Positions 2,156-29,277 of a DNA stretch of 29,277 nt are shown here, in pieces. The stretch's first letter is position 1; every line of letters starts with the position of its first letter. The stretch is from contig JBBJOU010000001.1 of assembly GCA_037724305.1 (NCBI GenBank), positions 1-29,277 of the forward strand, given 5' to 3'. The position numbers were made by a program, and so were the translations under genes. A model generated the notes under the pieces. The model was given only the letters and a program-made list of their open reading frames with translations. It was not told the origin of the DNA and did no database searches. Source of the stretch: Acidimicrobiales bacterium (GTDB taxonomy: Bacteria; Actinomycetota; Acidimicrobiia; Acidimicrobiales; JACDCH01).

Positions 2156-2593
2156 ATGAGGCGGATCTGGCGGTTGGGCGTCCTGGCGACGGTGGCCGTC
2201 GTCGCCTTCGCGGTCGCCGTCGAGCGCTTCGACGACGCCGCCGAGACCGGCTGTGCCCAACGGGCGCGCGAGGACCCCTCCTACGAGGCGCGCTTCATCG
2301 ACGAGCCGCAGATCGAGGTCCTCACCTACCGCGTGGCCATCACCCGCGAGGGCGAGGAGGTCGAAGGAGCGGACGTCTGCCTGAGCGCGTACATGCAGGG
2401 CATGTCGGCGATGGCCACCACCGGTGCCGGCCGAGAGGTCTCACCCGGGGTCTACGAGCTGTCGCTGACCTTCGAGATGGGCGGGCGGTGGTCGGGTCGC
2501 GTGCTGGTCGCCGAACCCGGGCAGTCGGTGGCCGCCATCCCCCTCACCCTGGAGATCCCGCCCGAGGAAGAGGCGACGGCGCCATCGGGATGA
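2156..2593 (+). CDS. Secreted/membrane-anchored YtkA/FixH-like protein
   Basis: Basic plus hydrophobic N-terminus (MRRIWRLGVLATVAVVAFAVA), Met cluster YMQGMSAM, and GVYELSLTFEMGGRW matching the YtkA-like G-x-Y...M-x-G-x-W pattern. Confidence 0.65.
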   Translation: MRRIWRLGVLATVAVVAFAVAVERFDDAAETGCAQRAREDPSYEARFIDEPQIEVLTYRVAITREGEEVEGADVCLSAYMQGMSAMATTGAGREVSPGVYELSLTFEMGGRWSGRVLVAEPGQSVAAIPLTLEIPPEEEATAPSG

Positions 2594-3348
2594 CCTGCTC
2601 CGGGTCGGCGAGCGAGGCGGGCCCACGGCCCGTTCCCATCGCACTCGTTGCGGCCGAGGTTGCCATCGTCGCGGTCGACCTGGCGAACGAGCAGCTCCGC
2701 ACACCCGAGCTGCTCGCCACCCTCGACGACGTCGAGCAGTCGGTGGCCGCACGATTCGTCCGTCCCGGTGACCGATGCCGCTACGAGGCGGCGCACGTCG
2801 GGCTCCGGGTGGTGCTGGCAGCGTGCGAGCGCACGGGGATGGCCGCGGTCACCATCGTCCGCACCGCCTGCAGGCGGTGCGGTGCGCCCCACGGCAAGCC
2901 CGTCCTGCTCGACCGGCCCGACGTCGGCTTCTCCCTCGCCCGTGCCGGCACCCTCGCGCTCGTCGCCGTCGCCGCGGGACCCGTTGGCGTCGACCTCGAG
3001 CCGGTCGACGGCCGGCCGCCGCCGAACCTCGTCCGCTCCATCTGCACTCCCGGCGAGGTGGGTGCGCTCGAGGCGGCGGGCGCACCGTCGGCGAACGTCC
3101 TGCGGATGTGGACCCGCAAGGAGGCCCTGCTCAAAGCGACCGGCGAGGGTCTGACCCGTGACCCCAGGACCGTCGAGGTCGGGCGGGGCGGGGCAACGAC
3201 CGTCGACGGCTTCCGGGTGACGGACGTCGATGTCGGCGTGGCCGGCTACGTCGCGGCGGCGTCGTGGGCCGGGAGCGCGCCGCGTCGCCTACGGCTCGGC
3301 GCCGTCGTCGTCGACGGGGGACAGCCCTCGTGGGTGATCGACGGGTAG
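2590..3348 (+). CDS. Sfp-type 4'-phosphopantetheinyl transferase
   Basis: Motifs HGKP, VGVDLE and WTRKEALLKATGEGL. ATG at 2590 overlaps the upstream TGA (ATGA). Confidence 0.93.
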   Translation: MTCSGSASEAGPRPVPIALVAAEVAIVAVDLANEQLRTPELLATLDDVEQSVAARFVRPGDRCRYEAAHVGLRVVLAACERTGMAAVTIVRTACRRCGAPHGKPVLLDRPDVGFSLARAGTLALVAVAAGPVGVDLEPVDGRPPPNLVRSICTPGEVGALEAAGAPSANVLRMWTRKEALLKATGEGLTRDPRTVEVGRGGATTVDGFRVTDVDVGVAGYVAAASWAGSAPRRLRLGAVVVDGGQPSWVIDG

Positions 3349-7650: not shown

Positions 7651-8301
7651 TCACCCGGACAGGGTGTCGAGCAGGTCCTCCATCTCGGGGATCATCGCCT
7701 CCTGCTCGGCCTTGATGGATTCGGCCAGCGCGACGACGTCGGTCTCGTCGCCGTCGCTGATCTCGCGATCGGCCATCGCCACCGCGCCCTCGTGGTGGGT
7801 GATCATGCCCTCGAGGTAGAGCTGATCGAACTCGGCGCCGCTCGCTTCCTCCAGCTCGGCGAACTCGTCCTGGGTGAGCATGCCGTCCATGCGGTCCATG
7901 GTGCTCATGTCCATGCCACCCATGGCGCCGAGCTCTTCCTCGCCGAGCGATTCGAGCAGGGTCTGCATCTCGTCGATCTCGGTGACATGGGTGGCGTCGA
8001 TCTCCTCGGCGAGGGCGACGACGTCCGGGCTCTCGGCGGCGTCCGCCGCCAGGGCGTTCATCGCCACGGCCTGCTCGTGGTGGACGAGCATGTTCTGGAG
8101 GAACTCGACGTCGGGGTCGACGTCCATGCCCTCCTCCATGTCCTCCTCCATGTCCATGTCGCCCATGTCGTCGTCGCCCTCCTCGCCGCCCTCCCCGGTC
8201 GTGACATCGGCACCGGTGTCGACCTCGGGATCGTCGTCGCTCGCGCATGACGCGCCGAACAGCACGATCAGCGCACAGGCAGCTGCAGATATGGGACGCA
8301 T
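7651..8301 (-). CDS. DUF305 (CopM-like) lipoprotein, Met/acidic-rich
   Basis: AGGAGA SD just upstream of ATG 8301. Signal peptide ending FGAS-C (lipobox-like). Two DUF305 repeats (FLQNMLVHHEQAVAM; YLEGMITHHEGAVAM). Confidence 0.9.
   Translation of the reverse strand: MRPISAAACALIVLFGASCASDDDPEVDTGADVTTGEGGEEGDDDMGDMDMEEDMEEGMDVDPDVEFLQNMLVHHEQAVAMNALAADAAESPDVVALAEEIDATHVTEIDEMQTLLESLGEEELGAMGGMDMSTMDRMDGMLTQDEFAELEEASGAEFDQLYLEGMITHHEGAVAMADREISDGDETDVVALAESIKAEQEAMIPEMEDLLDTLSG
8130..8159. repeat. Short coding tandem repeat (CCTCCTCCATGT x2 plus partial)
   Basis: The 12-bp unit occurs at 8130-8141 and 8142-8153. It encodes part of the DMDMEEDMEEGM Met/acidic linker on the minus strand. 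Confidence 0.6.
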
Positions 8302-16518: not shown

Positions 16519-17850
16519 TCAGGGGGCGATGCGGTTCGGGCCGCGGTGCAGGTAGGTCACCTCGCGCACGTCGTCGATGCCCAGGATCGACATGAGGGCG
16601 CGGGTGAGCCCGAGGCCGAACCCGCCGTGCGGCGGGCAGCCGAACTTGAAGTAGTCGAGGTAGAACTGGATGGGCGGCAGGTCGATGCCGCGGCTGGCGG
16701 CCTGCTCGACGAGGCGCTCGTAACGGTGCTCCCGTTGGGCGCCGGTGGTCACCTCGAGGCCCTTCCACAGCAGGTCGAACCCGCGGGTGGCGGTCGAGCC
16801 GTCCTCGAGGAGCATGTGGTAGAAGGGCCGCACGGCGGCGCCGTACTCGGTCACGAACACGAACTCGTGGCCGTGGGTGGCGGCGACGTGGGCGGCGAGG
16901 AGCTGCTCGCCCTCGCGGTCGATGTCGCCGGGACGGTGCGGGCCGACCCAGCCGCGGCCGCGGAGGATGTCGTAGGCCTCCTCCATGGGGACCCGGGGGA
17001 ACGGGAGCTCGGGGACGTTGACCTCGACCCCGAAGGTCCGCCGGATGTCGTCGCCGTGCTGGTCGGCGACGGCGGCGATCACGTCGCGGAGCCAGCGCTC
17101 CTCCAGCGCCATCACGTCCTCGTGCGAGGAGATCCAGGAGATCTCCATGTCGACGCTGGTGAACTCGGTGTCGTGGCGATCGGTGGCGTGCGGGTTGGCG
17201 CGGAACACCGGGCCGACCTCGAAGACGCGGTCGAACCCGGCCGCCATCGCCATCTGCTTGTGGAACTGCGGTGACTGCGCCAGGTAGGCGGGCCGTCCGA
17301 AGTAGTCGATGGTGAACAGCTCGCGGCCGGACCGGTTGGACACGGCCCGGATCTTGGGCGAGTGCAGTTCGATGCAGCCGTCCGCCTCCCAGAAGGCCCG
17401 CATCGCCCGCTCGGCGGTGGTCTGCACCTCGAACACGAGCCGGGCGGACCGTCGCCGCAGGTCGAGGAAGCGCCAGTCGAGGCGCTCCTCGACCGGCGAG
17501 TGCTCGTCGATGGGCACCTCGGCCACCGCCGGCCCGACCACCCGCACCTCGGCGACGGTGATCTCGGGGCGCCCATCGCCGGACGGGGCGGCGACGACGC
17601 CGACGGCTTCGACGGCCGACTCGGCGACCAGGCCGACGAGCGCGGCGGCGAGCGGCCCGGTGCCCGCCTCGGCGTCGGCCCCGTCGACGAGCGTCACCCG
17701 ACCGCGGCGATCGCGCAGGACGAGCGAGGGGGCGCCGTCGGCGGCGGTCGGTTCCGCCCAGCCGCACACGCGCACCGTCGCACCCGTCCGGTCGGCGAGG
17801 TCGGTCGCCAGCGACCGGGGGAGGGGAGGGGTAGGAGGAGGCGTCGCCAT
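16519..17850 (-). CDS. aspS: Archaeal-type (non-discriminating-like) aspartyl-tRNA synthetase paralog
   Basis: Class II catalytic core: RLDWRFLDLR, YLAQSPQFHKQ, VFEVGPVFRAN, RHDTEFTSVDME, FDLLWKGLEVTTGAQREH and PPHGGFGLGLTR. The N-terminal OB-fold is divergent. ATG 17850 is preferred over 17934. Confidence 0.88.
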   Translation of the reverse strand: MATPPPTPPLPRSLATDLADRTGATVRVCGWAEPTAADGAPSLVLRDRRGRVTLVDGADAEAGTGPLAAALVGLVAESAVEAVGVVAAPSGDGRPEITVAEVRVVGPAVAEVPIDEHSPVEERLDWRFLDLRRRSARLVFEVQTTAERAMRAFWEADGCIELHSPKIRAVSNRSGRELFTIDYFGRPAYLAQSPQFHKQMAMAAGFDRVFEVGPVFRANPHATDRHDTEFTSVDMEISWISSHEDVMALEERWLRDVIAAVADQHGDDIRRTFGVEVNVPELPFPRVPMEEAYDILRGRGWVGPHRPGDIDREGEQLLAAHVAATHGHEFVFVTEYGAAVRPFYHMLLEDGSTATRGFDLLWKGLEVTTGAQREHRYERLVEQAASRGIDLPPIQFYLDYFKFGCPPHGGFGLGLTRALMSILGIDDVREVTYLHRGPNRIAP

Positions 17851-17952
17851 GGTGGAAGTCGTCGTCCCGCCCGCCCCAGGGCACGGCCTCGGGCGGCGGG
17901 AGGCTGGTACGGTACTCGCTCCGTCCGGCGGCACAGGTTGGGGGAGAGAGCC

Positions 17953-20595: not shown

Positions 20596-21114
20596 GTGTG
20601 CGGGCCCGAGGCCGGCGAGCCCGTCTCGACGGGTGAGGCCGGCGCCGCTCGACCCTCGACCGCCCCCGGTGGTTGGGCCGCGGTCCACCACGTCGGCGTC
20701 ACGGTGCGCGATCTCGACCGCTCGGCCGCCTTCTGGGAGCGGCTCGTCGGATCTGCGGCACGGGACCGCCGGGTCCTGCAGGGGCCCCAGCTCTCGACGA
20801 TGGTCGGCTACGAGGGCATCCGCATCGACTCGTGCTGGGTCGACCTCCCGGGCGGGGTGGCGCTGGAACTGCTCCAGTACCTCGACCGCAACGATGCGGC
20901 CTATGACCCCGGCACCGCGCACCCCGGCAACGTGCACGTGTGCCTGCGCGTCGACGACATGGACGCCGCCCACGCCCATGCCGTGGCGTGTGGTGCCCAC
21001 CCGGTGAGCGAGCGGCCGATCGAGGTCGCCGCCGGCCCCAAGGCCGGGACCCGCCTCGCCTACCTGCGCGACCTCGACGGCGTGACCATCGAGCTGATCC
21101 AGCCCTCACCGTGA
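20596..21114 (+). CDS. VOC-family protein (glyoxalase/methylmalonyl-CoA epimerase-like)
   Basis: HHVGVTV, LELLQY, HVCLRVDD and DLDGVTIELIQ give a complete His/Glu/His/Glu metal ligand set. Start uncertain. Confidence 0.85.
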   Translation: MCGPEAGEPVSTGEAGAARPSTAPGGWAAVHHVGVTVRDLDRSAAFWERLVGSAARDRRVLQGPQLSTMVGYEGIRIDSCWVDLPGGVALELLQYLDRNDAAYDPGTAHPGNVHVCLRVDDMDAAHAHAVACGAHPVSERPIEVAAGPKAGTRLAYLRDLDGVTIELIQPSP

Positions 21115-22868
21115 GCGAGCTCGCGAGCACCGCCCCCGTCGTGCCCGACCTGCTCCGGGCCCGGGCCGCCGACGATCCGGACGCCGTGGCCCTCCGAGTG
21201 GGCGACGCTGGCGAGCTGACGCTCGGCGACTGGGAACGACGGTCCAATGCCGCCGCCCGAGGCCTCGTTGACCGGGGCCTGCGACCGGGCCAGCTGGTGG
21301 CGCTGCTCCTCGACAACGATGACCTGGTCGAGTACGCGGTCGGCTATCTCGCCGTGCTCAAGGCCGGTGCCGTGGCCGTGCCGTTGGGCCGCCGCTTCGC
21401 CGGCCCGCAGCTCGACCACATTCTGCGCTCCGCCACCGTCGTCGGCGTCCTGTCGGGGACCGGTGCCCCGCCGCTAGCGGCGGGCGCGTGGGTGGCGCGA
21501 CCCGCCGCGCTGGAGGCCGACCAGGCGGACGACCGCTACCAGGTCGGCGTCGAGAGCACCGAGCTGGCCGAGGTGATCTACACGTCGGGCACGACCGGGA
21601 TGCCCCAGGGCGTGACCTGCACCCACGCCAACCTCATGGCCCACGACGTCCCGCCCGACGCCGCCGCGGTGCACGGCACGATCTCGTTCCTGCACTGTTT
21701 CCCGATCGGGACCCAGGCAGCACAGGAGGCGATGCGGGTGCCGCTCCGGGTGGCGAAGCGCGTGGCGGTGGCGCTCCCCGTCTTCGACCCGGCCCAGTTG
21801 TGCGCCCTCGTCGCCCGCCACCGGGTCGCCCGGCTCCAGCTGGTGCCGGCGTTGGCCCAGATGCTGGTCAGCTCGGACGCCCACCGCCACCACGACCTGT
21901 CGTCGGTGCGCCGGGTGATCCTGTCGTCGGCCCACGCCCCTCCGGCGCTGTTCGCCCGCCTCACCGAGATCTTCCCCGAGGCCACGCTGTGGAACGCCTA
22001 CGCCCTCACCGAGGCCGGTGGTGCCCGCACCCTCATGCAATGGGACGAGCGCCGCCCCTCTTCGGTCGGCCGGCCGGTGGGCGAGACCGAGCTGCGCATC
22101 GTCGGCGAGTCCGGCGACGACCGGGGGACGGGCGAGACCGGTGAGGTGTGGCTGCGGCGCCGGGCGACGCCCACGCGGGGGTACTACCGGGACCCCGCCG
22201 CCACCGCCGCCGTGTTCGTCGACGGCTGGGTGCGCAGCGGCGACCTCGGCCACCTCGACGCCGACGGGTACCTGCACCTCGACGACCGCCTGAAGGACGT
22301 CATCATCTCCGGCGGCCTCAACATCAGCTCGGTCGAGATCGAGGATGCCCTCAGCGAGCACCCGGCGGTGGTCGAGGCGGCGGTGTTCGGCGTGCCCCAC
22401 CCGGTGCTCGGCGAACAGGTCGCCGCCGCCGTGGTGGCCGCTCCCGGCACCACCGAGCGCGACCTGCGCAACTTCGTGCGCACCCGCCTGGCCGAGCACC
22501 AGGTGCCGCGCCGCCTGGTGCTGGTCGACGAGCTGCCCCGCAACCCCTCGGGCAAGGTGCGCAAGACCGACCTGCGCCGGCGCTACGGCGAGGACGGGTC
22601 AGCCGCCCCGAACGTTGCCCCCACGGGGACGATGGAGGAGGCGGTGGCGGCGGTGTGGGCGGAGCTGCTGGGCGTGCCGGCGGTCGGCGCCCACGACGAC
22701 TTCTTCGCCCTCGGCGGCCACTCGCTCGTCGCCGTGCAGATCACCGCCCGCCTCGGTGAGGCGTTCGGCATCGAGCTGGATGCCGGCGCCGTGTTCGAGG
22801 CGCCGACGGTCGCCGAGCTGGCGGTCGTGCTTGCCGCGGCCCGCGCTGCGAGCGGGGCCGGCACGTAA
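21111..22868 (+). CDS. Acyl-CoA-ligase-type adenylation domain fused to a peptidyl carrier (A-T loading protein)
   Basis: YTSGTTG, YALTEAG, RSGDLG, DRLKDVIISGG and PRNPSGKV, followed by FFALGGHSL (GGHS at 22713-22724). GTGA overlap with the VOC stop. Confidence 0.92.
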   Translation: MSELASTAPVVPDLLRARAADDPDAVALRVGDAGELTLGDWERRSNAAARGLVDRGLRPGQLVALLLDNDDLVEYAVGYLAVLKAGAVAVPLGRRFAGPQLDHILRSATVVGVLSGTGAPPLAAGAWVARPAALEADQADDRYQVGVESTELAEVIYTSGTTGMPQGVTCTHANLMAHDVPPDAAAVHGTISFLHCFPIGTQAAQEAMRVPLRVAKRVAVALPVFDPAQLCALVARHRVARLQLVPALAQMLVSSDAHRHHDLSSVRRVILSSAHAPPALFARLTEIFPEATLWNAYALTEAGGARTLMQWDERRPSSVGRPVGETELRIVGESGDDRGTGETGEVWLRRRATPTRGYYRDPAATAAVFVDGWVRSGDLGHLDADGYLHLDDRLKDVIISGGLNISSVEIEDALSEHPAVVEAAVFGVPHPVLGEQVAAAVVAAPGTTERDLRNFVRTRLAEHQVPRRLVLVDELPRNPSGKVRKTDLRRRYGEDGSAAPNVAPTGTMEEAVAAVWAELLGVPAVGAHDDFFALGGHSLVAVQITARLGEAFGIELDAGAVFEAPTVAELAVVLAAARAASGAGT

Positions 22869-24281: not shown

Positions 24282-24344
24282 TAGCGCCGAGATTGCGTCG
24301 GATGACGGGGACTCGACTTCCGCCATCTCGCCCTCCCTTCGGAT

Positions 24345-26372
24345 CTATGCCTCAGCATGGCGCATCGGTCCGGCGGGTTGGGCGGCGAGCGCCACCGCCA
24401 GCATCTCGGGGGTCCGGCACCGGGTGAGCTGCTCGTCGGTGAGGGCCAGGCCGGCCTGACGGGCCTCCGCCAGCGCGGTCAGGAACGAGAAGTCCTGCCA
24501 GTAGATGTCGGTGGTGGACATCGGTTCGCCGCGCGCCTCGCTCCACAGCCCCGCCAGGAGCGTGGCGGCAGGGTCGGGGTCCTCGGCGCCGTGCTCGCCG
24601 GTGGTCGCCATGGCCTCGACGTCGAGGGTGGCGTCGGGACGGCGGTGGAGGGCGTCGACGGTCACGAGCCGGGCGGGCCAGAGCGAGCCCGGGAGCTCCG
24701 CCCAGAGCGCGGCGCGTAGCCCCGAGAGCGTCGGTCGGTCGTCGTCGTCGGCCACGACGAACGCCACCAGTCGGGGGCCGTCGTCCGCGTCGACGACGGC
24801 CACGCCCACGTCCGCCACGTCCGGGCACCGCTCGAGCGCGGCCTCGATGCGGGAGCGTCGGGCCCGGAACCCCCTGAGCTCGACCCGGTCGTCCGCCGGG
24901 AGGACCTCGGGGGAGACGTTGGGAGGCGGGACGGCGGCGGCGATCTCGCTGACGCGCCGGTGGGGGTCGGCGGCGACGGCGGCCAGCAGCGCTTCGAAGT
25001 GCTCGAGCAGCTCGGCGACGACGGGCCGGTCGAACACGCCCCTGGCCACCAGCGCCATCTCGTCGGGGTTGGCGAGCAGGGACAGGATCAGGAACGTGCC
25101 GGCATACGCACCATCGCCCCAGACGGGCGCAGGGCTCGGGTCGCCCTCCGCCTGGTCGTCCTCCCGCGCCCCGGCGCTGAAGTGGCGTTCCCGGCGGGAG
25201 TCGACGGGGGTGTCGTAGCCGGTCGTCCGGATCCCCGGCAACACGAGCTTGGTGGGCTGCGGGGTCTCGCCCTGGAAGACGACGGCGATCTGGGGCACGA
25301 CCCCGTGGGCGGCGGCGGCGGGGCCGAGGGTCTCGGCCACGACGGCCTCGAACGCCGGGTCCTGGTGGGCCATGGCGCCGAGGACGCTGCTGCGGCCGCG
25401 AGCGACCAGCTCCGGGAACGAGGGGTCGTCGTCGAGCGACAACCGGACCAGGATCTTCTTGGTGAAGCAGCCGATCAACGGTTCGAGCTCGGTCCGGTTT
25501 CGGTGGGCCACGACCGAGGCCATGACGAGATCGAGCTGACCGGTGATCCGGGCGACCAGCACCGCGAACGCCGCCAGCGCGGTCATGAACGGGGTCGCCC
25601 GCAGCTCACGAGACAGGGTGCGGAGGCGGGTGGCGAGCTCGTAGGGGAGGTCCCGGCGCACGGGTTCTCCCGACGGCGGGCGTCCCCGGCCGGCCCCGTC
25701 GGGCGCAGCGATCGGGAGCTGCACGCTCAGGGGGGCGCCGGCCAGGTGCGTCCGCCACCACGCCAGCTGCGCCGCTCCCACCTCGCCGGCGACGACGGAC
25801 CGCTCCGTGCGGGCGAAGTCGACGAAGGTCGTGGCCAGCTCGGGGAGGGGCGACGACCGGCCGTCGAGGAACGACGCGTAGAGCGCGGAGAAGTCCTTGC
25901 GGAACACCTCGACCGACCAGTCGTCGAAGACCGTGTGGTGGAGCCGGACGACGAGAACGTGGTCGTCGGTCCCGAGACGCACGAGGCGGGGGACGAACAG
26001 CGGACCGTGGACGAGGTCGAACGGCCGGCTGGACGCGTCGGCGAGGAGGCGGGTCATCTCGGCGTCCCGGGCTTCTTCCGGTCGGTCGGCGAGGTCCGTC
26101 ACGGCCAGCGCGAACGTCCCGGGCTCACCCACGACCTGCCACGGGGTCCCGTCGACGAGCTCGAAGGTCGTGCGCAACGGCTCGTGGCGGCGGATGAGCT
26201 CGGACAACGCGCGCTCCAGGGCGGCGGTGTCGAGCGGGCCCCGGTAGCGGCGGACGAGGCACGGCAGGTTGAAGCTGCCCGGCGAGAACTGCTCATGCCA
26301 GAGCATGGCGTCCTGGGAGATCGCCACTGGGCCGGCCGGCTCTGGGGAGGGGGCCCCGGCCGGGTCGGTCAC
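24345..26372 (-). CDS. NRPS-like protein: condensation domain + isolated A-subdomain + degenerate carrier remnant
   Basis: C domain with RRHEPLRTTF and HHTVFDD (25920-25940). Then ADDRVELRGFR from 24896, RLVAFVV and LPGSLWPAR (A8-A10 region with no A core). Then LWSEARG..., T-like but without GGxS. GTGA overlap with the CoA-transferase stop. Confidence 0.85.
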   Translation of the reverse strand: MTDPAGAPSPEPAGPVAISQDAMLWHEQFSPGSFNLPCLVRRYRGPLDTAALERALSELIRRHEPLRTTFELVDGTPWQVVGEPGTFALAVTDLADRPEEARDAEMTRLLADASSRPFDLVHGPLFVPRLVRLGTDDHVLVVRLHHTVFDDWSVEVFRKDFSALYASFLDGRSSPLPELATTFVDFARTERSVVAGEVGAAQLAWWRTHLAGAPLSVQLPIAAPDGAGRGRPPSGEPVRRDLPYELATRLRTLSRELRATPFMTALAAFAVLVARITGQLDLVMASVVAHRNRTELEPLIGCFTKKILVRLSLDDDPSFPELVARGRSSVLGAMAHQDPAFEAVVAETLGPAAAAHGVVPQIAVVFQGETPQPTKLVLPGIRTTGYDTPVDSRRERHFSAGAREDDQAEGDPSPAPVWGDGAYAGTFLILSLLANPDEMALVARGVFDRPVVAELLEHFEALLAAVAADPHRRVSEIAAAVPPPNVSPEVLPADDRVELRGFRARRSRIEAALERCPDVADVGVAVVDADDGPRLVAFVVADDDDRPTLSGLRAALWAELPGSLWPARLVTVDALHRRPDATLDVEAMATTGEHGAEDPDPAATLLAGLWSEARGEPMSTTDIYWQDFSFLTALAEARQAGLALTDEQLTRCRTPEMLAVALAAQPAGPMRHAEA

Positions 26373-28216
26373 GGCGTGAACGCCCAGGGGGTCGACGGGG
26401 CCCGGCAGCTGGCGGCGAGCGTCTCGAACATCGCCGCCACGGCGGGATCGGTGGTCAGCGCCGCCAGCTCGGTGGTGACTGCTGCGCAGGCGATGCCGGC
26501 CTCGGTGAGGAGCCGCACCACCGCCTCCGAGGATTCGTCACCGATGCGCCCGGCCACCCGCACGTCGAGTGGTGCGCCGGGGCCGTCGAGGTCGAGCTCG
26601 TAGAGCTCGCCCAGCCGGCGTTGCGTCTCCCGGTCGCCGGCATCCACCACGATGAAGCCGTCGCTCGTCGCCACCGGGACGTCGAGGGCGCCCCACACCG
26701 GCCGGCCCCGGCGGCGACCCGGGTCGCCGCCGGCGACGACGCCGTCGAGCACATGGGCCTGCAGCGCCATGGCGCCGGACTGCAACGACGTGCGCACTCG
26801 GGTGCCGCGCCCGTCCAGCGCCTGGCGGTACAACCCGGAGAGCACGCCCTCGCAGGTGACCAGCGCGCCGAGGAAGTCGGTCAGGAGGACACGGCTCGGG
26901 AACGGCGGCTCGTTCTCGGGGTTGATCCCGTAGCCGAGGCCGGTGTGGGCCTGGACGAGGAAATCGGTGCCGATCACCCCGGACGCGCTCGAACCGGGCT
27001 CCCACCCGGCGGCCTCGGTGTAAACGAGCCCCGGGTTGCCCCTCGAGAGGTCGGAAGCGCTCAGGCCCCACTCGGCCGCCTTGCCGGGCCGCCAGTTGTG
27101 CAGGAAGGCGTCGGCGCTCGAGGCGAGCTCGGCGAGCTCCGCCCGTCCGGCGGGGGTGGCGAGGTCGACCTCGATGGTGTGCTTGGCCCGGTTGAAGCAG
27201 AGGAAGAACGAGCCGGTGTCGCCGGCGAGCGGCGGCACCCCCCGGCCCACGTCGCCGCCGGGTGACTCGACCCGGGTGACGTGAGCGCCGAGCATCTGGA
27301 GCAGCAGGCCGGCCAGTGGTCCCTGGAGGCGGCTCGTCGCCTCCACCACCCGCAACCCGGCGAGGGGCAGGTCGTCACCGGGCCCGCCGTCGGCGATCGG
27401 CGCGACCGCGGGAGGGCCGCCGGCACCGTCGCCGGCCGGAAGGAGCGCGTCGACGAGCGGGTGGCCCCCCGACGGTGCTCCCTCGGCCAGCACCTCGTCG
27501 TAGTCGCGGACGAGGCTGAGGCTGACCCCGCACTCGCTGGCCACGCCGGTGACCGCCTCGAGGGTGACGGCGGCGGTCGCCTCGTGGAAGCCGACGGGCG
27601 TCGACGAGGTGCCCCTGTAGTAGCGGGGCCGGAACTGCGTCCACGCCCGGCCGATCTCGGCCTCGGGTGCGCCGAGGCGCAGCCAGAACGCCTTCCACGC
27701 CTCGGGGTCGAAGGTCTCGATCTCGAACCAGCGACCGTCGGCGGTGGCGAACGGCGGCCCGGGCGCCGGGTTCGGCGCCGGCCACCAGTCCTGCGGGCAC
27801 GTCGCCGCCGCCAGGTAGTGCGACGCCTGGAACAGGCCGGCCTGCAGCACCGAGGTGTGGACGGTGCTGGTCGAGCGGCCCCGCCGCCCGCCGATGGCCA
27901 TGGCGAGCATCGCCTGGGCGGCGAACATCCCGGCCGCCACCGAGGCGACCTCCACCCCGATGCGCCGGGGCCCGCCGTGATCGCGCCCGTGGAGGTGCAT
28001 CAGCCCCGTCGCCGCCTGCACCAGGGCCTCGCTGCCGGCCTGGTCCGGCGGTCGTGCCGACCCCCACCAGGAGATCTCGCACGACACCGGCCGGTCGGCG
28101 CCGGCGCCGTCCGGCCAGGTGACGACGCCGGTCGCCCCGGTGCTCGTCTCCGGGCGGGCGCCGAGCGCCGCCAACCGCCGCACGCAGGTCTGCACCGCCA
28201 ACTCCGGTCCCGTCAC
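26369..28216 (-). CDS. Tandem-domain family III (CaiB/BaiF) CoA-transferase
   Basis: Second half has PLAGLRVVE, MLGAHVTRVESP, FNRAK, ADAFLHNWRPG and LLTDFLG. First half has SEALVQAATGLM...ASVAAG and DGRWFE. GGAGG SD 5 nt before GTG 28216. Confidence 0.88.
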   Translation of the reverse strand: MTGPELAVQTCVRRLAALGARPETSTGATGVVTWPDGAGADRPVSCEISWWGSARPPDQAGSEALVQAATGLMHLHGRDHGGPRRIGVEVASVAAGMFAAQAMLAMAIGGRRGRSTSTVHTSVLQAGLFQASHYLAAATCPQDWWPAPNPAPGPPFATADGRWFEIETFDPEAWKAFWLRLGAPEAEIGRAWTQFRPRYYRGTSSTPVGFHEATAAVTLEAVTGVASECGVSLSLVRDYDEVLAEGAPSGGHPLVDALLPAGDGAGGPPAVAPIADGGPGDDLPLAGLRVVEATSRLQGPLAGLLLQMLGAHVTRVESPGGDVGRGVPPLAGDTGSFFLCFNRAKHTIEVDLATPAGRAELAELASSADAFLHNWRPGKAAEWGLSASDLSRGNPGLVYTEAAGWEPGSSASGVIGTDFLVQAHTGLGYGINPENEPPFPSRVLLTDFLGALVTCEGVLSGLYRQALDGRGTRVRTSLQSGAMALQAHVLDGVVAGGDPGRRRGRPVWGALDVPVATSDGFIVVDAGDRETQRRLGELYELDLDGPGAPLDVRVAGRIGDESSEAVVRLLTEAGIACAAVTTELAALTTDPAVAAMFETLAASCRAPSTPWAFTP

Positions 28217-28539: not shown

Positions 28540-29277
28540 ATGGTTGGACTTCGGAAGGTGACCCGCGCGCTCGTGGGTTCATCGCTGCTGCTGGGAGGCT
28601 TCGCCTTTGTGGCCCAGCCCGCCTCGGCGGACCACCTCGCCTGCGGGGCGACGGTGACGCAGAACGTCACGCTGGACAGTGACATCGGCCCGTGCACCGG
28701 CGACGGCCTCGTCGTCGCCACCAGCAACGTCACCATCAACCTGAACGGGTTCCGGATCTTCGCCGACAACGGCGCCGGCGACAACGCCGGCATCCGGATC
28801 CGACCGGGCGCAGCCGGGCTGACCACCGGGGTGACCATCATTAGGGGCACCGTCGAGGGCTTCGACGCCGGCATCGGCATCTTCGGCGGCGGCAACAACC
28901 TGGTCCGGAACATGACCATCCAGAACAACATCAACGATCAGATCCCGACCGTTCCCGCCGGCGGCGACAACCCCTGCGACCTGGGTGATGGCATCGCCAT
29001 GCTCAACTCGAGCGACAACGACATCATCAACAACCGGTTGGTGAGAAACGGGCCGTTGGGCGGTATCACGGCCATCGAGAACTCCGACCGGAACTACATC
29101 GCCGGGAACACGCTGGCGGATCACAACCTCCGCGGGGTCCCCGGTGGTGGTTGCGGCAACGCCAACCAGAACGAGGGCGTCCGCATCGAAGGCCCCGGCG
29201 CCAACGACAACATCGTCGAGAACAACACCGTCACGAACAGCGGGCTCGCCGGCATCGGCCTGCACGGCTACGTGTGC
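28540..29277 (+). CDS. Secreted right-handed parallel beta-helix (pectin-lyase/NosD-like) protein, truncated by the window end
   Basis: Not in the supplied ORF track because it runs off the end. ATG 28540 follows GGAGG. It reads MVGLRKVTRALVGSSLLLGGFAFVAQPASA-DHLACGATVTQNVTLDSDIGPC...TINLNGF...GI...NN repeats and is open to 29277. Confidence 0.85.
   Translation, partial: MVGLRKVTRALVGSSLLLGGFAFVAQPASADHLACGATVTQNVTLDSDIGPCTGDGLVVATSNVTINLNGFRIFADNGAGDNAGIRIRPGAAGLTTGVTIIRGTVEGFDAGIGIFGGGNNLVRNMTIQNNINDQIPTVPAGGDNPCDLGDGIAMLNSSDNDIINNRLVRNGPLGGITAIENSDRNYIAGNTLADHNLRGVPGGGCGNANQNEGVRIEGPGANDNIVENNTVTNSGLAGIGLHGYVC

Follow-up and report, generated by a model that had tools for sequence, protein, structure and literature searches.

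The 29,277-nucleotide stretch analysed here (the window) is positions 1 to 29,277 of contig JBBJOU010000001.1 of an Acidimicrobiales bacterium (GenBank assembly GCA_037724305.1), a 72% GC contig of a 2.5-Mb metagenome-assembled genome (MAG) that is 79% complete. At 24345-26372 on the minus strand it encodes a free-standing protein built from the parts of a nonribosomal peptide synthetase (NRPS) module: a condensation (C) domain, then only the C-terminal subdomain (Asub) of an adenylation (A) domain, and last a pseudo-carrier, T*, derived from a thiolation (T) domain. We hold, with somewhat better than even confidence, that the C enzyme is live and acts on its own, receiving an acyl group from the A-T loading protein encoded nearby and passing it to an acceptor in trans. 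The initial annotation had offered two readings of the protein, a docking scaffold or a stand-alone condensing enzyme. At the level of sequence the second is the best, since the HH...DD residues and many other C-domain residues are invariant across the family. The parts of the gene are as follows.

24345-26372, minus strand: whole gene, with C domain, deletion scar, Asub and pseudo-carrier T* (open frame, Pfam, AlphaFold2 (AF2) model)

24963-26330, minus strand: condensation domain, LCL-like, residues 15-470 (Pfam, VIA-align, nearest solved sequence Txo2)

25920-25940, minus strand: catalytic motif HHTVFDD, residues 145-151 (translation, family alignment)

24891-24938, minus strand: 16-residue scar AAVPPPNVSPEVLPAD in place of about 405 A-core residues (BLASTP against relative P0123)

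24603-24890, minus strand: Asub, residues 495-590, from the A8 hinge motif (Pfam, model topology, ratio of nonsynonymous to synonymous substitution rates (dN/dS))

24621-24650, minus strand: A10 remnant LHRRPDATLD, residues 575-584, with Thr at the position of the catalytic Lys (translation, alignment)

24375-24581, minus strand: pseudo-carrier T*, residues 598-666, a four-helix bundle (AF2 model, hhalign)

24480-24503, minus strand: T* signature YWQDFSFL at the place of FFxLGGHSL (family alignment)

The open reading frame (ORF) is intact, as had been annotated: it is open over its full length and gives a product of 675 amino acids (aa). Its GTG start codon shares the bases GTGA with the TGA stop codon of the upstream coenzyme A (CoA)-transferase gene, and this overlap at the junction bears out the coupling of the two genes; an alternative start at codon 16 is also possible. 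In the translation, the motifs HHTVFDD, ADDRVELRGFR and LHRRPDATLD lie where they had been reported, and GGxS is absent from the tail.

The C domain is recognized by Pfam (PF00668, residues 17-366, E 1e-55, 189.8 bits for a cut-off of 30.6). Its two-lobed fold, of the chloramphenicol acetyltransferase type, matches the C domains of Txo2, CmnI, SrfA-C and DhbF in VIA-align with Z 25-27 and a root-mean-square deviation (rmsd) of 3.0-4.5 Å (Z 26-27 for the first three). Among solved sequences Txo2 comes closest (E 5e-69); the nearest C domains, those of Txo2 and DhbF, belong to the LCL elongation type and not to the starter type. We computed residue frequencies per column on 120 family members. 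H145, H146 and D150 are invariant in 120/120, and position 151 is Asp in 119/120, where it replaces the Gly of HHxxxDG. This invariant Asp sits at the donor acyl entry of the N-lobe cavity, as placed by a published review, and may select a small or cationic donor. Such a selection would fit the presence of aminotransferase and VOC genes, co-directional with the A-T gene and just upstream of it. Elsewhere in the domain, the C-terminal lobe carries a family-specific insertion of low model confidence (P0001 residues 395-425, window about 25098-25190), which lies between the invariant motifs RERHF and WGDGxY.

An Asp at the motif Gly is also found in the X domain of glycopeptide synthetases (HRxxxDD; 4TX2), which shares the C fold and to which the motif had been likened. 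On this analogy the protein could be a non-catalytic, C-like platform that recruits tailoring enzymes or carriers, which we consider very unlikely. In its favour, the X domain ranks near the top of the structural matches (Z 25.8, 29% identity), all other domains of the protein are dead, and the predicted template modelling score (pTM) of 0.92 of the AF2 model implies a rigid multi-domain body. However, X domains, which recruit P450s, have lost the second catalytic His, whereas here both His and the first Asp are invariant throughout the family, and there is no P450 among the window genes. The similarity to the Txo2 C domain is also far above that to the X domain (E 5e-29). Since both His are kept and the window has no P450, identity with an X domain is excluded and the analogy has to be abandoned.

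What follows the C domain is an A domain without its core. Pfam finds no match to the AMP-binding core (PF00501, motifs A1-A7) in the 675-aa protein. In a BLASTP alignment with P0123, a relative with a full-length A region, residues 12-478 and 495-665 align, and between them about 405 A-core residues are reduced to 16. Hence, the A core is indeed absent after the C domain and its linker, the cut starting where the C-A linker ends and reaching the A8 hinge. The scar itself is the least conserved stretch of the protein. The hinge motif ADDRVELRGFR (VELRGFR present) lies at residues 492-503; AMP-binding_C (PF13193) is matched at residues 509-575 with 25.9 bits, just over the cut-off of 24.5, and residues 495-590 of the AF2 model show the strand-helix topology of an Asub. 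The A10 consensus PxxxxGK(V/I)D has become RRPDATLD, in a family where the Lys column varies (R, G, T and others).

The tail keeps the fold of a carrier. Its helices in the AF2 model span residues 601-614, 629-639, 646-651 and 655-664, and hhalign aligns it to real T domains with a probability of 92% (E 5e-7). In this alignment a 4-residue deletion takes out the LGG(H/D) loop, and the carrier Ser falls opposite D627. PP-binding (PF00550) has no match at E<=0.1 in the whole protein, and the tail searched alone matches no Pfam family even at E<=1. In the signature, Y624, W625, Q626, F628 and F630 are nearly invariant in the family. The two remaining columns vary (n=120 for each): position 629 is S in 99 members, T in 11, A in 8 and H in 1, while position 627 is D in 95, S in 11, R in 9 and A in 3. 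In whole clades residue 629 is Ala or Thr, and in two core-bearing relatives it is Pro. Because neither column is invariant while the neighbouring aromatics nearly are, the YWQDFSF region reads, on its pattern of conservation, as a packing or pocket surface and not as a phosphopantetheinylation site.

A live but non-canonical carrier is the alternative. In A-less modules such as CmnI/VioI (PMC12400406), and in FbsE, whose A domain is truncated (PMC11661926), the carrier follows a C (or Cy) domain with no working A domain between them and is loaded in trans, as demonstrated for CmnI (PMC12400406). CmnI is among the best structural matches to the C domain described here (Z 26.2). By the same logic S629 would be phosphopantetheinylated, loaded in trans and used as the acceptor carrier. 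S629 starts helix 2 in the AF2 model, which is the canonical position, and the model puts T* at the acceptor face of C. The window has a phosphopantetheinyl transferase (PPTase) gene (ACPS, E 7e-15) and four adenylating enzymes for two obvious carriers. Yet members with Ala, Thr, His or Pro at 629 keep all the C invariants, the LGG(H/D) loop is gone, hhalign puts the carrier Ser opposite D627, a column that is also variable, there is no PP-binding match even at the most permissive threshold, and the invariant flanking aromatics suggest a packing surface more than a PPTase site. The carriers of CmnI/VioI and FbsE are live and loaded by the A domain of another module, whereas here the motif is deleted and no Ser is invariant. 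We thus regard a live carrier as a rather unlikely explanation.

The architecture is neither particular to this genome nor the product of its assembly. We found 605 metagenomic proteins matching at E<=1e-5; most of the 120 matches listed have 95-98% query coverage and 50-60% identity. In species-representative genomes there are 57 loci, all in MAGs, from Acidimicrobiales, other Actinomycetota, Solirubrobacterales, Egibacteraceae and one Dormiibacterota. The family is patchy, since 300 genomes drawn at random from the same class gave weak generic NRPS matches and no true member. Searches of the literature retrieved no description of the C-Asub-T* family or of its cluster. A HMMER search of Asub-T* against 1.84 billion representatives was dominated by giant multimodular NRPSs, at about 35% identity per module, and showed only ordinary homology to NRPS Asub-T. 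The ESM Atlas has further actinomycete clusters, of 647-673 aa, with Condensation, AMP-binding_C and PP-binding domains, a lead which suggests that free-standing C-Asub-T proteins may be common. Two Streptomyces candidates (L063 and L065) for C-Asub proteins were discarded, being in fact two ORFs in different frames.

Sequences nearly identical to window positions 24300-26450 are present in at least 18 public metagenome runs of soil, rock and hypoliths, from about 11 studies, which implies a wide distribution of the organism in arid soils and rocks. One contig of 24 kb, assembled from a rock metagenome, contains the entire gene with 28 substitutions and no gaps, and contigs of three further studies run through the scar without indels. 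As contigs from four independent studies cross the scar ungapped, a deletion made during assembly is excluded.

The tail is also under selection. Asub (residues 501-575) and the tail (601-650) are as conserved per column as the C domain, and only the scar and the linker between Asub and tail are free to vary. Pairwise dN/dS among four relatives is 0.31-0.38 for the C domain and 0.33-0.42 for Asub and T* together; for Asub alone it is 0.30-0.61, with five of the six pairs at 0.30-0.37. The scar and linker give 0.31-1.03, on 18-24 codons only. These are Nei-Gojobori (NG86) estimates, biased by a GC content of 92% at third codon positions (GC3), but the comparison between domains of one gene still holds. 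Purifying selection on Asub-T* is therefore the same as on C. This agrees with the initial annotation, which had argued against random decay and had named a neutral tail in a single genome, or loss of the core in assembly, as the observations that would overturn its reading; neither applies. A decaying relic or an assembly artefact without function has in its favour the loss of the A core, of the A10 Lys and of the carrier motif, and against it the intact ORF, dN/dS well below 1 in all three domains, hundreds of conserved homologues and the same junction in four independent studies. We consider it barely credible. Because the same design is conserved in hundreds of sequences from uncultured soil actinobacteria, we regard the protein as a working variant of an established type of enzyme.

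How such a protein arose can be traced in relatives that still bear the core. Their A3 motif is YGSGxSxVERG, without the P-loop Lys, A4 is TDDA, A5 is FGPPE and A7 is YDTAQ, without Asp; the A10 Lys is absent, and their tail already has YWQxFSF. As the A motifs of these full-core relatives are dead and their T* motif is the one found here, loss of function in A and T came before the deletion of the core. This amends the idea that the A core was removed: the core is missing, but it was not excised from a working module. In a FastTree phylogeny of the C domains the core-bearing members are nested among the core-less ones, some of these groupings being well supported (e.g. L046 with P0115, at 0.996). 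Parsimony requires at least four core changes, or about eight or more independent losses if regain is disallowed. The breakpoints differ as well, with an HH-to-YWQ spacing of 422-544 residues and A6-A7 kept in P0105 and P0111. On this sequence evidence the A core was probably deleted several times. An ancestral C-A-T module thus lost the catalytic residues of A and T first and its dead A core later, with Asub and T* retained under purifying selection.

Most relatives carry an extra relic, A', at the N-terminus, of about 300 aa and without a P-loop (seen in P0011 1-310 and in about 80 other long relatives). A' folds as the large domain of ANL enzymes (Z 28, about 300 residues at 3 Å) and has 33-37% identity with the A core of the A-T protein of the window (E 1e-29 to 1e-37). 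The model of the long form, A' included, has a pTM of 0.92, and A' is predicted to be rigidly packed. We rejected the idea that A' and Asub form one A domain with an inserted C domain, given that A' is much nearer to the A-T core (E 1e-37) than to the dead core of C-A-T* (E 7e-11) and that their joint superposition on ANL enzymes gives only 14-15 Å rmsd. The CoA-transferase is not an alternative to A' either, since both occur together in L013, L020, L034 and L043. Some relatives have a T domain detectable by Pfam between A' and C or ahead of C. In these fused upstream T domains, the Ser is replaced in 12/12 (GGDAL, GGDEL, GGNQF and similar) while PP-binding is still matched (P0097, P0098, P0103, P0104, P0106-P0108, P0110, P0114, P0118, P0122 and P0123). 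Judged by its motifs, every domain fused to C is dead and C alone keeps its catalytic residues.

The predicted structure suggests what the dead parts do. The AF2 model, built from 117 family sequences, has a predicted local distance difference test (pLDDT) score of 93.3 besides its high pTM. Taken as a single body, C, Asub and T* can be superposed on TycB1 in its crosslinked condensation state (9BFD; 583 residues, 3.5 Å), on SrfA-C (2VSQ; 596 residues, 5.3 Å) and on the C-A-PCP (peptidyl carrier protein) module of McyA2 (586 residues). In the whole-module alignment T* falls on the PCP of SrfA-C and TycB1, and in the condensation-state structures of these two the acceptor site of C is where the carrier is found (PMC10510592). 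Because the three parts superpose jointly on such structures, the prediction is of a C-A-T module fixed in its condensation state, with the A core gone and T* on the acceptor face. The placement of C, Asub and carrier is the same as in SrfA-C and TycB1, but there it is a transient state of a module with a live A core and a mobile carrier, whereas the protein here lacks the core and would keep this arrangement permanently. Asub-T* would then brace the structure and perhaps contribute to the acceptor pocket.

The best candidate for the donor is a neighbouring gene.

20940-22868, plus strand: A-T loading protein with the live carrier motif GGHSL, the proposed donor (Pfam, translation, synteny)

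In its longest ORF this gene starts with some 60 residues rich in Arg and Pro, overlapping the VOC gene at its end (window 20940-21120); translation probably begins further downstream, near VSELAST. No gene accompanies the family more often than that of the A-T protein (24 loci), which in the basal loci L004, L024, L031 and L033 lies directly upstream and co-directional. This synteny, together with the origin of A' from its type of A core, points to the A-T protein as the donor module. The predicted complex between its carrier (residues 556-642) and the C protein scores 0.35 where the best control scores 0.01. Of solved complexes 55/80 reach that mark, as do 3/110 mismatched pairs, but among passing scores of 0.60 or below there are only 7/80 solved complexes and all five passing mismatches. 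The predicted interface is made by residues 255-335 of the C-terminal lobe, the donor side of C domains according to a review (PMC10510592). The complex model hence lends weak support to the A-T carrier as donor, which would dock on this face with its acyl group.

The other candidate for the donor is the gene that overlaps the start codon.

26369-28216, minus strand: family III CoA-transferase, 615 aa, with two CoA_transf_3 halves (Pfam, junction sequence)

The first half is partial (residues 44-245, profile positions 115-320) and the second is full, a 1.5-copy form that is kept in 16 related loci at 46-63% identity. The protein could be a CoA-dependent acyltransferase that takes acyl-CoA from this transferase, or from the two carrier-less ligases of the cluster, and moves the acyl group to a free acceptor, with the pseudo-carriers filling the old docking sites. 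Besides the GTGA overlap that couples the two genes, there is their proximity: in 16 of about 33 larger loci the two adjoin or lie no more than about 3 kb apart, and these loci span deep branches, with an A-core-bearing clade and a Dormiibacterota MAG among them. Two AMP-ligases of the cluster lack a carrier, all the carriers fused to C in the family are dead, and starter C domains are known from a review to use acyl-CoA. In about half of the loci, however, no CoA-transferase lies within 10 kb; the live A-T protein is both the more constant neighbour and the evolutionary source of A', and the nearest C domains are of the elongation and not of the starter type. The supply of CoA thioesters by the partner gene, as first suggested, is thus possible, the CoA-transferase being linked in about half of the larger loci, but synteny and the fusion relics favour the A-T carrier more. 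We take this explanation to be unlikely. In its strongest form, the C domain would have become a carrier-independent acyl-CoA transferase whose old docking sites are permanently filled by dead carriers, T* on the acceptor face and, in relatives, a second dead T from upstream; the invariant YWQxFSF loop would line the acceptor pocket, and the enzyme would act in a complex with the translationally coupled, pseudo-dimeric CoA-transferase. We put the chances of this version equally low. If it were true, product formation by the acyl-CoA transferase would be coupled to export in the relatives fused to an exporter.

With a carrier-bound donor supplied by the A-T protein, the C domain would pass the acyl group to an acceptor in trans, since the protein has no live carrier of its own. 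Such enzymes have precedents. VibH is a stand-alone C enzyme that uses a carrier-bound acyl donor and a free amine as acceptor, and it releases the product. OaaC is also a free-standing C enzyme with a carrier-bound donor and a free amine acceptor, likewise releasing its product, from a starter-like clade and with an active-site motif of its own (PMC13310621). Both are bare C domains of about 430-450 aa, without relics of Asub or carrier, unlike the protein described here. The closest precedent, to judge from its published description, is module 13 of GdnB (C13-A*-T13-TE, where TE is a thioesterase) in the synthesis of glidonin, which also joins a C domain, an A domain reduced to Asub (A*) and a domain of T fold. 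There, C13 condenses a carrier-bound acyl chain with free putrescine, and A*-T13 is reported to be needed for folding and stability, not for loading (PMC10587159). T13 keeps the conserved Ser, the mutation of which abolished production (PMC10587159). The GdnB module also stands at the end of a very large NRPS, ahead of a TE, whereas the protein here is free-standing, has lost the T motif, has a C motif ending in DD and belongs to an unrelated actinobacterial family.

By analogy with GdnB C13, VibH and OaaC, the acceptor would most likely be a free nucleophile, the product being released near the exporter; the aminoacyl carrier of the A-T-C protein would be a less likely acceptor. The lack of a live carrier in the protein, a minimal locus and exporter fusions in relatives are indirect signs of a free acceptor and release. 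Locus L004 (21 kb read) holds only the A-T gene and a T(dead)-C-Asub-T* gene, adjoining a CsoR-CopZ-CopA operon. In at least four relatives, P0100, L021 (9866-13045), L031 (3364-7041) and L033 (1939-5670), C-Asub-T* is fused in-frame to a DrrA-like exporter ATPase, which in the window is a separate gene (254-1315).

Several points weigh against the stand-alone enzyme fed by the A-T protein. S629 is kept in 83% of the members and caps helix 2 in the AF2 model, so this copy could have a live carrier. The Asp that replaces Gly at the donor entry could alter or impair donor binding. Loci without the CoA-transferase, the other common type, have an extra NRPS of 1763 aa between the C-Asub-T* and A-T-C genes (L003 12871-18162), which consists of a partial C stretch at the N-terminus, an A domain with a methyltransferase inserted, a T domain and a C domain. 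The C-Asub-T* gene there precedes further NRPS modules collinearly, an order that fits an ordinary first elongation onto a trans carrier, for which T* would have to move away. The arrangement of the domains is an AF2 prediction, and AF2 has been trained on structures like SrfA-C; the score of the complex may reflect a memory of solved PCP-C complexes. Finally, the dN/dS estimates carry the GC3 bias of NG86, and the family is known from sequence alone, every member coming from an uncultured organism.

The recurrent genes of the cluster encode the A-T protein, the A-T-C protein, the two AMP-ligases, a metallo-beta-lactamase (MBL)-fold protein and a class II aminoacyl-tRNA synthetase (aaRS)-like protein, together with GT1 glycosyltransferases, a PaaA-like protein, a Rv2949c-like lyase, a sulfotransferase, a DrrAB-like ABC exporter, YtkA and NosD; a cupredoxin is found in several relatives. 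The aaRS-like gene (tRNA-synt_2, window 16519-17934, minus strand) is kept in 14 related loci at 51-67% identity and usually adjoins the MBL-fold gene. The PPTase gene (ACPS superfamily) lies at about 2488-3348 on the plus strand, between the YtkA gene and the A-T-C gene, and a high-GC3 ORF opposite to it (2781-3245) matches no family. We also asked whether Asub complements a ligase in trans and rejected this, as both stand-alone ligases and both A domains of the window have their own AMP-binding_C. Nothing points to the protein being a docking scaffold for ligases or for the aspartyl-tRNA synthetase-like protein, as the initial annotation had considered; both stand-alone ligases keep their own Asub.

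Copper-handling genes (YtkA-like, DUF305, cupredoxin, NosD-like) recur in the window (2156-2593, 7651-8301 and 28540-29277) and in relatives (L004 12309-16194, where the CsoR-CopZ-CopA operon is directly downstream, L003 8292-8768, L005 12181-12645 and L008 1638-2153). The product of the cluster may be linked to copper, for instance as a chalkophore or in detoxification.

A-less NRPS modules are increasingly recognized, and the pieces that they leave behind are usually dismissed. This family provides a natural series, from a C domain with a dead full A and a dead T domain to C-Asub-T*, with or without a dead A' and T upstream. As the dead core was lost repeatedly while Asub and the serine-less carrier fold were always kept, a structural role of Asub-T beside C becomes testable. 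This matters for the engineering of NRPSs, in which a C domain cut out without the domains beside it is often insoluble. The C-Asub-T* protein also marks a conserved gene cluster of uncultured Actinomycetota from soil and rock, one that is repeatedly linked to copper-handling genes.

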